Of a DNA stretch of 64,000 nt, positions 30,222 to 56,800 are shown piece after piece. The DNA lies in the NCBI GenBank assembly GCA_963708075.1, contig OY970194.1, forward strand, positions 1,504,001 to 1,568,000, given 5' to 3'. The notes below the pieces were generated by a model. The model saw only the letters and a program-made list of their open reading frames with translations. It made no database searches and was not told where the DNA came from. Source of the stretch: Sedimentisphaerales bacterium. Its GTDB lineage: Bacteria; Planctomycetota; Phycisphaerae; Sedimentisphaerales; Anaerobacaceae. How positions within the stretch are numbered: the stretch's first letter is position 1; every line of letters begins with the position of its first letter. The translations under genes and the position numbers were made by a program.

Positions 30222-32155
30222 CACACTGGCCCTGATCGAGGAATTTCTAAGTTCATCGCAAGCTACGCACATCCGCTGTAACGCGAGCACCGCGCTTGGG
30301 CGCTCTCCTCTGACCCTGCTGCGGATCATCGCGACCGCAGCAAGGCCAGTATGGAACGGCTGGCCCTCATCGCGGTAAGCGATCCGTCCAGGGAGGTGCG
30401 CGACCATGCGGTCGACATCCTCCGCCGCGCCGCTGCCGGCAACCGTGCGCCGGAGGTGGTGCAGGCGGCCGTGGAGAAGCTGAACGAGACAACAAAGCCT
30501 GACGTGCGGCGCCGCGTCTACTCGCTGCTTGGCCAACTGCGAGCAGAGGGTATCACAGGGGCCCCAAGCGGTTCTCGGGGCTTCACTCCGGCGGCTGAGA
30601 ATGATTGCCTCGATCAAGTGCCTCCCGGACGCGGAAGTGAAACAGAGCTTCCAGTGGCGCCCTATATGGCTGGCGGCTGCCGGCACGCTGCCGGGCGCCT
30701 TTGTTCTCGCTCTCCTGGCGTTCCTCTTCGCTGCTCCGCTGACGTCGGAGGTGGTGCCCGCGCTGCTCATTTTTTCGCCGCTCGTGGGTGCGGGTTCTCA
30801 GCCTTGTCGCTACGCAACAAGCCATCCCCATAGGACTGCACTACGACCGTCTTGCCGGCGGCCTGATGGCAATTGTCCGCGCCGTCATGTGGTCGGTCCT
30901 GCCTTCCTTTCTTCTGGCGGCATTCATGTTTTCTGAGGCCCCCTCTTCCGCTCGCGTGTTTCCTGTCTGTCTCGCCAGTGCCTTGACGCTACCCATCGTG
31001 CTGGCTTCGGTGAAACTCGGGTCACTTCTCGCTCACGGGATCACGGCAAGGCCGTGGATAGCCTTGGGTGTACATGCCGCATCGGGTACCGCAGTCGGAC
31101 TCATCACTACCCTCGCTCTCGCCTGGCGATACCCTTCTCTCACAGACGAGACGGACTGGCCAGAAGTGATCTACTTGTGCTGGGCGATCCTGAGCCCCGC
31201 GATCGTGGGTCTGGCCGTGGCCTTCGCCGATATTGAGAGTCGGTCCGTACCACCACGGCGCGGCGCGGGCTGGGCGCGCACCTCGGTCGTCGTTTTGTCC
31301 GGCCTGGTCTGCGCGTACCTCCTCATCAAGCCCATCGGGCTCCGCCTCATGGAGCCCGTCCCGAGAGAGGACCTCTCCACAGTTCTAGCCGGGCGGCCAA
31401 TGCGCCCCATCGAAACAAGATTCGACCGGATGCTCAGCACTGACTCCGTACAGATCCTGGTCAGCGACAAGGGCTTTCCGCTCCACCGTCTGGATGCGAA
31501 TAGAGAGCCGACCGTGCGCTCGACGGGCCCCGAGAAAGGCAGGAACTTGGTGCCAGTGCACAGACTGTCCATGGGCAGGGTCTTCTGGCTACTGCAACCG
31601 GGTCGCTACCTGCTGCGCCTGACCAGCGCATCCGGCACAACGGATCTCACGGATCTGTTCCCGAGGCTATCCAATCCAACGGCATCCAGTGATTACATTA
31701 GAGCCATCTCGCTGACGCTGAATCCTCTTGGCGCCCAGGAGATAAGCCGAAATCCGGAGGTCTCACCCCGCGAGGCAGATCCCAATGGAACTACAGTCGT
31801 GGTATGGAAAACCAACCCCAAGAGGTTGCCTCTCGATGTCTCGTTCGAAGTCAGCCTCCCGCGGCAGGATATCTATGTCAGTCTATCGGATCCCGATCCC
31901 GAAGGCTACACCTCGCGCCTACTAAGGGTGACGCTGCTGGACAGCCAGAAACGCGACGTTGCCAACCGGACCGACCCGCCCTCGTTTGCACGCAGACTCT
32001 CGGAACCGGGCAAGTACAACCTCGTAACTGATTTCTCTGATTCCACCTACCGGTATGTGCCAGACTTCCCGACCGAACTGATCCTTATTCTTGGCGTCGA
32101 CGAGGCAACTCTGCAACTGCTGGAGGCCGCGATAGAGGGACGGTCGGCACGATAG
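30214..32155 (+). CDS. HEAT-like repeat plus multi-TM membrane protein with C-terminal soluble domain (three apparent frameshifts)
   Basis: Contiguous ORF pieces 30214-, 30351-, 30529-, 30788-32155 joined by single-base shifts; DPSREVRDHAVDIL and PDVRRRVYSLLG HEAT-like units; roughly 8 hydrophobic segments; GGAG RBS and ATGCGTGA overlap. Confidence 0.7.
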
Positions 32156-32220
32156 CAGAGCAGCGCGGCCCTGACGCCCTTTTCGATGATTCGCGCGGTT
32201 CGTGGTTTCGCTTTGGCCCT

Positions 32221-32350
32221 GATCATCTTGGATGACATCACTTCTGATATGGGCGCCGCATTGTTGACAGGCGGTGACGATAATGGTACTCTCTCCACCG
32301 GAATCGTGCCGTCCGTCGTAAGATCGCCGACGGCACGAGGCGCTCAAACT
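32221..32350 (+). repeat. Diverged direct repeat, right copy; contains a TTGACA-17-TACTCT promoter-like site
   Basis: Similarity to 25062-25190; ttgaca ggcggtgacgataatgg tactct upstream of the beta-barrel gene. Confidence 0.8.
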
Positions 32351-32369
32351 GGGGTCGGGGAGATGCATC

Positions 32370-53236: not shown

Positions 53237-53719
53237 AACTTTGACTGTCTGTTACGAGAAGTCCAAATCGACGAATTGGCATAATAGAAGAGTGTGACAA
53301 TGTCTCATAGGCCTCAACAAAGGAACGGAATCATGCAGAGGGTATCCATGCGAACTCTGGCTCTATTAGTCGAGTTGCTGTTGGCGGTTGCCTCCCATCA
53401 GTACATGGCGATCACCAGGCCCAGCACAGGCGTCATGTGGCTGGCAGGCAACTGCGACACAAGCGAGTATTACCAAGGCGCCACACAGGCTCTGAACTGA
53501 GCCCCTAGGGCACGCCTTCCCATCATCATGCCGGCCGTAACGTCCCGCGCCCACGCGGCAGCGGGCGTTGTCTCACACTCAATCGCACCCACGGCCGGCA
53601 TGCCCTAACTCCACTCCCCCTGAACCATACCGCACGGAATGTGAAAGCATGGGCGAACACAACCGGGCTCGACGCCCATGACGCCCGACACACACCGGCA
53701 GCCGCTTTCTGATTGCCCT

Positions 53720-53748
53720 TTGACAGACGGTCCTGGATATGGTCTAAT
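53720..53748 (+). promoter_or_regulatory. Putative sigma70 promoter of carB
   Basis: TTGACA-17 nt-TCTAAT about 70 nt upstream of the start codon. Confidence 0.6.
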
Positions 53749-53816
53749 CCCGCCGAACTCGAGTGTGGCTTCCAGCAACCTTGATCCAAGGTTTGTCGCA
53801 GACAGGAGAAGACTCA

Positions 53817-56800
53817 ATGCCGAAACGTACAGACATCAAGAAAATCATGATCATCGGTTCCGGGCCGATCGTGATCGGTCAGGCCTGCGAATTCGACTAC
53901 TCCGGGACGCAGGCGTGCAAGGCCCTGCGAGGTCTCGGCTACCACATCGTGCTGGCCAACTCCAACCCGGCCACGATCATGACCGACCCCGGAATGGCCG
54001 ATGCGACCTACATCGAGCCGCTCACGGTCGAGGCCATGACGGAGGTCATCAAGGTTGAGCGTCCCGACGCCCTGCTGCCCAACCTCGGCGGGCAAAGCGG
54101 ATTGAACCTGGCGTCGGAACTTGCTATGAGCGGCGCGCTCGACAAGTACGGCGTCAAGGTCATCGGCGTCCAGGTCGACGCGATCAAGCGGGGCGAGGAC
54201 CGCCTGGCGTTCAAGCAGACCATGGAACGGCTCGGGATCGACATGCCTCGCAGCGAGGTGGCCTACAGCGTGGAGGAGGCGGAGAAGATCGCCGAGAAGC
54301 TGGGCTATCCGGTGGTTATCCGCCCCGCCTACACCATGGGCGGTACGGGAGGCGGAGCCGTGTTCAATGTCGAGGAGCTGCGCGTCATTGCCAGCCGGGG
54401 GCTTTCCGCCAGCCTGGTCAAGCAGATCCTCGTCGAGGAGTCCGTGCTCGGCTGGGAGGAGTTGGAGCTGGAGGTGGTCCGCGATGCCAAGGGGCAGAAG
54501 ATCACCGTCTGCTTCATTGAGAACGTCGATCCCATGGGCGTTCACACAGGCGATTCCTACTGCACCGCCCCGATGCTCACAATCGACTCCAAGCTGCAGG
54601 AGCAACTGCAGAAATATTCCTACGACATCGTCGACGCCATCGAGGTCATCGGGGGCACAAATATCCAGTTCGCCCACGATCCTGCGACCGGACGGGTGGT
54701 CGTCATTGAGATCAACCCGCGGACCTCGCGCTCCTCAGCCCTGGCCTCCAAGGCGACCGGGTTCCCTATCGCGAGGGTCTCGTCCCTGCTGGCCGCCGGC
54801 ATGACCCTGGATGAAATTCCCTATTGGCGCGACGGCACGCTGGAGAAGTATACCCCGTCGGGCGATTACGTCGTCGTCAAGTTCGCCCGCTGGGCCTTCG
54901 AGAAGTTCAAGGGCGTCGAGGACAAGCTCGGCACGCAGATGCGAGCCGTCGGCGAGGCGATGAGCATCGGCAAGAACTACAAGGAGGCGTTCCAGAAATC
55001 GATCCGGTCGCTGGAGATCGGACGCCACGGCCTTGGCTTTGCGAAGAACTTCAACAAGCTGCCCCTGGAGCAATTGCTGGGCCTGTTGACGTACGCCACG
55101 AGCGAGCGGCAGTTCGTCATGTACGAGGCTCTGCGAAAGGGCGCCGGCGTTCAGGCCCTGTATGACAAGACAAAGATCAAGCACTGGTTCATCGAGCAGA
55201 TGGCCGAGCTGGTTGCCCTGGAGGAGAAAATCCTCAAGTATAAAGGCAAAGCCGTGCCGGAGAAGCTGCTGGTCCAGGCGAAGAAGGACGGATTTGCCGA
55301 CAAGTACCTGGCCAAACTGCTCGGAGTGCCGGAGGAGGACATCCGCAAGCGCCGGATCGGCCTTGGCGTGACCGAGGCGTGGGACGCGGTCCCGGTCAGC
55401 GGCGTGGAGAATGCGGCTTACTACTACTCCACCTATAACGGCCCCGACAAGGTCGGCGTGAGCAAGAAACGCAAGATCATGGTCCTCGGCGGCGGGCCCA
55501 ACCGCATCGGCCAGGGCATTGAATTCGATTACTGCTGCGTCCATGCGGCCTTCACCCTCCGCGATGAGGGCTACGAGTCCATCATGGTCAACTGCAACCC
55601 GGAAACGGTCTCCACGGACTACGATACCTCGGACAAGCTATACTTCGAGCCGCTGACCGTCGAGGACGTCCTGAGCATTTACGACAAGGAGAAGCCGGAA
55701 GGCGTCGTCGTGCAGTTCGGCGGCCAGACGCCTCTGAATCTCGCCAGCGAGCTGGCCCGGGCGGGCGTCAAGATCCTCGGGACATCGCCAGATGCGATCG
55801 ACCTGGCCGAGGACCGCGACCGATTCCGGGCCGCGGCGCGCAAGATGGGGATTCCGCAGCCGGACTCCGGAATGGCGAGCAGCCCGGAGGAAGCGATCAA
55901 GATCGCAGCGGAAATCGGCTATCCGCTGATGGTCCGGCCGTCCTACGTCCTTGGCGGACGGGCGATGGAGGTCGTGCACGACGAGGAGATGCTCCGCCAT
56001 TACGTGGCCGCCGCCGTGGAAGTCAGTCCGGAGCGGCCGATCCTGATCGACAAGTTTCTCGAAAATGCGATCGAGAACCGAAGCGGACGCGATCGCCGAC
56101 GGGACGGACGCATTCGTGCCGGCCGTGATGGAGCACATCGAGCTGGCAGGCATCCACTCGGGCGACTCCGCCTGTGTCATCCCGCCGGTCAGCCTCCCCA
56201 AAAAGCACATCGACACGATCTGCGAATACACCCGTCGAATCGCGGTCGAGCTCAATGTCATCGGCCTGATGAACATCCAATACGCCATCTGCAAGGACAC
56301 CGTCTATATCCTTGAAGCGAACCCGCGAGCCTCGCGGACGGTGCCATTGGTTTCGAAGGTCTGCAACATCCAGATGGCCCGCCTGGCGGTGCAGTGTATG
56401 CTTGGCAAGAAGCTCTCCGAGCTCGGTATCAAGCAGCGAAAGATCCCGCACTTCGGTGTCAAGGAGGCCGTCTTCCCGTTCAACATGTTTCCGGAAGTGG
56501 ACCCGGTTCTCGGGCCGGAGATGCGTTCGACCGGCGAGGTCCTCGGCATGGCGAATTCCTTCGGCCTGGCTTTCTACAAGTCACAGCAGGCGGCCAAATC
56601 GGAACTGCCTCTGCAGGGCACCGTGCTGATCACGGTGACCGACCCGGACAAGAAGGATGTACTGAAGGCCGCCAAAGAGTTTGACAGACTCGGCTTTCGA
56701 ATCAAGGCGACAGACGGCACATACAAGCATCTGATCGCCAACGGCGTCCGGGCGGAGCAGATTCTGAAGATGCATGAGGGCCGGCCGAACATCGTCGATG

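Follow-up and report, generated by a model that had tools for sequence, protein, structure and literature searches.

Consensus errors at methylated motifs are a described fault of nanopore assemblies, reported at the Dcm site CCAGG/CCTGG (PMC6591954), at GCAGC/GCTGG in Listeria (PMC10687267) and at RACG/CGTY in Klebsiella (PMC11610573), with related work on such errors under the name Hammerhead (PMC11610603). Among enzymes, the closest described systems are Eco31I and EcoMI. The two methylases of EcoMI, M1 and M2, are 100% identical to those of Eco31I; N6-methyladenine (6mA) in GAG6mACC has been detected by single-molecule real-time (SMRT) sequencing and 5-methylcytosine (5mC) in GGT5mCTC predicted (PMC4659465), and in Escherichia coli ATCC 25922 both marks were reported by nanopore sequencing (PMC12679398). 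Here we analyse a stretch of 64,000 nucleotides (nt), the window, from a Sedimentisphaerales bacterium (assembly GCA_963708075.1, contig OY970194.1, here C1, positions 1,504,001–1,568,000), in which reading frames break by +1 at seven copies of the heptamer GAGAACC/GGTTCTC. The surplus base at these sites is very probably a consensus error that stems from methylation of GAGACC/GGTCTC by an Eco31I-like methylase pair encoded in the same genome.

The genome is one closed contig of 7.5 Mb, with a guanine plus cytosine (G+C) content of 60% and a completeness of 92.8%; homologues that carry an organism name point to Planctomycetota (Phycisphaerales, Sedimentisphaerales). An earlier, sequence-only reading of the window had placed seven independent frame breaks at the heptamer, had proposed that deleting one base repairs each of them, and had pointed to both orientations and to many intact GAGACC sites. 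All seven heptamers are found exactly where it placed them (Table 1). Four are sense and three antisense to their own gene; in total, the window holds 16 GAGAACC/GGTTCTC and 31 intact GAGACC/GGTCTC. Skipping one base recovers a full-length LipB of 242 residues, whose stop codon overlaps the lipA start as ATGA (50741–50744), a LipA of 286 residues and a CarB of 1085 residues, the ATP-grasp domain of which is divided between two frames in the assembly (Pfam). The three remaining genes regain frames of 362, 262 and 600 residues. A further GGTTCTC, at 7979–7985, precedes an htrA-like start by a short distance; it may be an eighth error, one that falls outside any coding frame.

Table 1. Error sites in the window and genes of the methylase locus. 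Positions refer to the window unless preceded by C1; aa, amino acids.
Feature	Position	Strand	Gene, evidence or remark
GGTTCTC, surplus T (true GGTCTC)	30570–30576	+	HEAT-repeat/membrane gene on +; base 30572 absent in X2 contig
GGTTCTC, surplus T	30793–30799	+	same HEAT-repeat/membrane gene; base 30795 absent in same X2 contig
GAGAACC, surplus A	40029–40035	-	262-aa gene of no known family; base 40031 absent in X1
GAGAACC, surplus A	45839–45845	+	antisense to 362-aa gene on - with HEPN-like RxxxxH; homologue evidence
GAGAACC, surplus A	50600–50606	+	lipB; homologue evidence and ATGA overlap with lipA
GAGAACC, surplus A	51365–51371	+	lipA; base 51368 absent in X1; 7/7 homologue alignments span site
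GAGAACC, surplus A	56073–56079	+	carB; base 56076 absent in X2, X3 and X6; homologues continuous
Four open genes (m6A methylase, m5C methylase, 437-aa DUF3883 protein, vsr)	C1:4,944,989–4,949,700		53–57% G+C; vsr on other strand
Methylase pair M1 + M2	C1:4,944,989–4,947,921		3.4 Mb from window
437-aa DUF3883 protein	C1:4,947,905–4,949,218	same as methylases	PF13020 match over cut-off, residues 318–391
Missing G in G run before GCGC	30297–30303	+	third break of membrane gene; G inserted behind 30297 in all four runs
Missing G before GCGC	43455–43461	+	uvrB near 3' end; G inserted in X1 contig of 695 nt, 0 other differences

Contigs assembled from other public runs of short-read type (X1–X6; runs contributing small shares were left out) lack the extra base at five of the seven sites, in X1, X2, X3 and X6. 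The X1 contig over the 40-kb site, 608 nt long, is otherwise identical to the window, and the X2 contig that leaves out both bases in the membrane gene has nine other differences in 608 nt. The other-run contigs, among those listed, cover these five sites; at 45839 and 50600 the support comes from homologues. The 45.8-kb gene is matched by 49 of 50 homologues in two frames, with the switch at 45821–45845, and all seven same-genus lipB genes have Glu-Thr (GAG ACC) at the position of the break. Elsewhere, the carB break is spanned by 26 alignments (with IETEAD in six of the seven sequences among those listed), and the one same-genus homologue of the 40-kb gene reads FVET straight through. Homologues of the 30-kb and 45.8-kb genes were not found in the relatives' DNA examined. 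The protein sequence flanking the breaks shows no decay in the homologue alignments. Because the contigs of other runs lack the base and the homologues read through, the genes broken at the seven sites are almost certainly intact in life, as the sequence-only reading had held.

The pattern extends through the genome. Using a coding model trained on the genome itself, we combined a scan for frame breaks with a frame test at each site. The break scan gave 720 +1 calls; the motif stood no more than 15 nt away from 133 of them, whereas flanking controls gave 4.5. Site by site, a +1 break was called at 139 of the 736 GAGAACC sites in coding context (18.9%; 1,683 GAGAACC in all), 90 sense and 49 antisense, compared with rates of 0–1.5% at 13 one-letter variants. 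The proposal that a count of the motif at frameshifts would expose the error was borne out, GAGAACC ranking first of the 7,537 7-mers with enough sites (135/734, or 18.4%, versus a background of 0.78%). Doubling of the A requires GAGAC followed by C: with A, G or T in that place the counts fall to 7/583, 8/753 and 4/413, together 19/1,749 (Fisher p 1e-54), so that the seven breaks of the window lie at a word hit far above chance. GTCTC and CGTCTC were ruled out as the target, the doubling being confined to GAGAC-C, as was the phosphorothioate motif GAAC/GTTC, with AAGAACC, CAGAACC, GCGAACC and other GAAC words at background.

Motif errors are spread evenly along the contig, at 5–14 per 500 kb, and are Poisson-like per 10 kb (mean 0.21, variance 0.21), whereas other +1 calls are clumped (0.79 and 1.41), with 26 of 751 10-kb bins holding 137 of 596 non-motif calls. 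A homology-based census, for which 681 open reading frames (ORFs) were taken from 1.13 Mb of DNA of the same genus and 457 kb could be aligned, returned 45 breaks. Of these, 31 are +1, and the motif accounts for 11 of the 31; 249 GAGACC are intact. The share of true GAGACC sites hit is thus about 4% by homology and 7% by the coding model (135/1,853), and the window, with 7 of 38 sites hit, is above the genome average. The site-by-site scan is insensitive, labelling two of the seven window sites where the break scan found five, and the counts are lower bounds. Frame-aware tests are needed, because plain k-mer counts are nearly blind to the signal, placing GAGAACC at rank 750 of 16,384 with an observed/expected ratio of 1.14.

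The genome encodes a predicted enzyme pair of the matching type, an Eco31I-like methyltransferase locus such as the sequence-only reading had suggested looking for (Table 1). The N6-adenine (m6A) methylase is over the cut-off of TIGR02987, the Alw26I/Eco31I/Esp3I family (389.3 bits versus 353.5), and carries motifs of the F-x-G-x-G and NPPW types (DPFCGDG at residue 77, NPPW at 160). The 5-cytosine (m5C) methylase is circularly permuted, motifs IX–X preceding I–VIII (profile positions 234–322 before 2–180, in one frame); this permutation is a family trait, and the target-recognition region has been located in the variable region (PMC5944983). The two proteins are 34% and 50% identical to M1 and M2 of EcoMI from E. 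coli EC958. In the N-terminal variable region of M2 (residues 1–85), 59 of 84 positions (70%) are identical to M2.EcoMI/M2.Eco31I, compared with 106 of 253 in the core. Among 401 genomes searched in the phylum, a matching methylase was found in 1, the present genome, and because of this rarity and its low G+C content the sequence data suggest that the methylase was recently gained.

The doubled A is at the 6mA position of Eco31I, and its partner T adjoins the 5mC; the data would fit either mark as the cause of the error. The pair is predicted to place GAG-6mA-CC on one strand and GGT-5mC-TC on the other. If the assembly was made from native-DNA nanopore reads, as seems probable (the platform is not on record), the modified bases may distort the signal and cause the A:T pair to be read double, at 2–17% of sites depending on context. 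That the host modifies GAGACC/GGTCTC, as the sequence-only reading proposed, is strongly indicated by the predicted pair and by the lack of bias in relatives without it.

These relatives bear on the proposal that the base-caller or polisher is biased at the word GAGACC irrespective of modification. Such a bias would suit a doubling rate that depends strongly on the flank (1.9% after G, 16.5% after T), and the sequencing platforms of the control genomes are not on record. However, relatives without the methylase show no GAGAACC bias. Over the parts examined (791 kb of G013, 997 kb of G014), the same-genus, frameshift-rich genome G013 has a +1 background of 4.4%, five times that found here, and its GAGAACC sites do not rise above it (2 of 62; Fisher p 0.001 versus this genome); G014 has a +1 at 0 of 106 (p 3e-9). 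No TIGR02987 match over the cut-off was found in G013 (genome 74% complete), and the restriction of the matching methylase to this genome among the 401 searched in the phylum points the same way; a modification-independent bias is quite improbable. Another enzyme could instead make the modified motif, the Eco31I-like pair having a different target or none. The genome does hold seven PF01555 matches over the cut-off, as well as a 530-aa protein with DPPY (type III Mod-like) and a 940-aa protein with NPPY (type IIG-like), both of unknown target, and the Alw26I/Eco31I/Esp3I family also includes GTCTC and CGTCTC enzymes. Against this, the errors fall on precisely the word that Eco31I recognises, with GAGACG, GAGACA and GAGACT excluded, and the variable region of M2 shares 70% identity with M2.Eco31I; we regard another enzyme as unlikely.

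Another alternative is that the insertions are real: the breaks would mark pseudogenes, points of transcriptional slippage or of programmed ribosomal frameshifting, or a methylated site that is prone to mutation. At any single site a clone-specific mutation would be conceivable, since the compared runs may be other strains. Real insertions would have to account for breaks that hit lipA, lipB and carB as well as more than a hundred further genes, in both orientations, next to undecayed protein sequence and with near-identical X1 contigs that lack the base. Real insertions are largely refuted and very improbable; ribosomal recoding in particular was ruled out, as both orientations occur.

Several observations weigh against methylation by the Eco31I-like pair as the cause. 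GGTCTC is not clearly avoided in the genome (observed/expected 0.83 raw and 0.86–0.90 with the errors added back, versus 0.92 in G014). The X1–X6 contigs are of low depth (about 3.5–4.5), with one contig per run per site; X2, X3 and X6 are related strains, not proven to be the same clone; and the absence of the base is read from contigs alone, not from raw reads or modification calls, with libraries that are not on record. G013 is an imperfect control given its completeness, and its platform and that of G014 are, as said, not on record. The other methylases of the genome, the type III Mod-like and type IIG-like ones among them, have no assigned target. An Eco31I-type gene is present in 634 of 5,426 E. 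coli genomes, and two EC958 assemblies hold an equal 375 GAGAACC each (2 of 11 Eco31I-bearing records searched, platforms not on record), a count that speaks neither for nor against methylation. Finally, the published methylation errors are mainly substitutions, not insertions (PMC10687267, PMC11610573), and insertions of the type GAGACC to GAGAACC were not found among the literature matches listed, as judged by title and the start of the abstract. Directly observed are the absence of the base in other runs, the unbroken homologues, an error tied to one motif throughout the genome, and the presence of both methylase genes with open frames.

The gene that follows the methylases encodes a 437-aa protein with a C-terminal DUF3883 domain, a domain placed in the PD-(D/E)xK superfamily with function unknown (PMC3424549). 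The nuclease of the Alw26I type, PF09665, gave no match at E 0.1 in the genome search, and the 437-aa protein has no similarity to R.EcoMI (score 40, versus a shuffled mean of 36 and maximum of 56). A protein search returned 209 relatives. We examined 42 loci, 16 of which are too short for a full test; of the 26 with at least 3 kb upstream, 25 carry both methylase genes, and counting loci with identical hit tables once leaves about 17. A plasmid search gave one partial match, H1. The predicted structure (predicted local distance difference test (pLDDT) 86.9) comprises a confident N-terminal domain of 275 residues, a low-confidence linker (278–311) and an Hjc-like PD-(D/E)xK domain, residues 302–415 of which fit Hjc resolvases (Z 9.4, root-mean-square deviation 2.6, 93 residues aligned). 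D342 and K357 are invariant, and E317 is over 90% conserved, in 113 sequences. The N-terminal domain has no Pfam match, and searches with the family returned nothing under E 0.5 against the PDB by sequence and nothing under E 0.001 with Foldseek. Conserved next to Eco31I-like methylases across many taxa, the protein is a candidate new GGTCTC cutter unrelated to R.Eco31I, and the errors are indirect evidence that the methylase–DUF3883 cassette targets GGTCTC. Whether the errors report in vivo on the GGTCTC target of an uncharacterised restriction–modification family, pairing Eco31I-like methylases with a DUF3883 nuclease of unrelated ancestry, is evenly balanced in our judgement; the nuclease would then be a smaller, non-homologous cutter of the BsaI/Eco31I site, would read DNA through a new domain and might cut at a different position.

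A second type of error, a missing G, occurs before GCGC (Table 1). The -1 calls cluster there: GGGCGC is hit at 72 of 2,996 sites (2.4%), versus 0.1–0.7% for the 15 other GGGCNN words, and 10 of the 14 -1 breaks in the homology census are at GCGC. G013 shares the signal (15/385). A second m5C methylase, for GCGC, was not found with PF00145 or TIGR00675 in the one contig of this 92.8% complete genome; the signal may reflect methylation by one of the PF01555 (N4/N6 methylase) enzymes or a generic calling error. One of these seven is an M.PvuII-like N4-cytosine methylase (C1:4,912,814–4,913,821; 1boo, E 8.5e-112), in agreement with the near absence of CAGCTG, present 170 times versus 4,016 expected (0.04) here and 28 versus 594 in G014. 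A 704-aa ORF at C1:6,889,163–6,891,277 combines an SPPY methylase with an additional region at its C-terminal end. The claim that the errors reveal the methylome thus holds for one clear motif and perhaps for GCGC; it does not extend to the seven N4/N6 methylase genes, which have no assignable footprint, and the motif accounts for only 135 of 753 +1 calls genome-wide, many of the others lying in local patches.

One such patch lies in the window. The priA gene (20532–22923) is in several frames, and contigs of X1 and X2 show seven surplus bases, none at the GAGAACC motif, together with many substitutions; since X1 is near-identical elsewhere, we read this region as locally of low quality or strain-mixed. 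The 362-aa gene (45415–46504, minus strand), labelled a HEPN gene by the sequence-only reading, owes support for that label solely to an R[NDH]xxxH motif, which 45 of 50 homologues contain; three homologues searched gave no Pfam match. A TIR-SIR2 gene, an nSTAND1 NTPase gene and the HEAT-repeat/multi-pass membrane gene stand in a row at 26428–32155 on the plus strand, possibly an anti-phage or signalling locus. At 38332–39507, on the minus strand, lies a DDE_Tnp_1 transposase gene; other runs cover it more deeply and with more variation, as expected of an insertion sequence present in several copies. Within 35688–36323, short elements near 35890–35912 and 36077–36099 match many unrelated contigs in four runs and are likely a dispersed small repeat.

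For curation, no fewer than 135 false frameshifts lie at this one motif in the genome, and the true number may be near 300. A truncated product of the motif error has already entered a protein database: the frameshifted, 303-aa form of the 362-aa gene (P0121), most relatives of which have 346–377 residues. An assembly by itself can suffice to link a methylation motif to its enzyme. The errors expose only part of the methylome, one clear motif and a weaker GCGC signal without an assigned enzyme. If the 437-aa protein cuts GGTCTC, it would give Golden Gate cloning a new scaffold for its most widely used site.

Compared with the Eco31I/EcoMI type IIS systems, the locus has the same two separate enzymes, an m6A methylase of TIGR02987 and then an m5C methylase with circular permutation, and probably the same target; it differs in its third gene, which encodes the DUF3883 protein on the same strand and is followed by vsr, in place of the Alw26I/Eco31I/Esp3I nuclease. 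DUF3883/NOV_C (PF13020) has mostly been described as part of ATPase, helicase, kinase or methylase fusions (PMC3424549), whereas here it is beside Eco31I-like methylases and joined by a linker to an N-terminal domain without Pfam match. For the errors themselves, the class of artefact is known and the pairing of this motif with its enzyme is new; the pattern is real, the frameshifts are not. As in the published nanopore cases, in which errors are already used to find motifs, one short motif is affected on both strands, at a minority of sites, in a genome with a matching methylase; those cases are described mainly as mismatches, whereas here a one-base insertion is read from a finished assembly alone.

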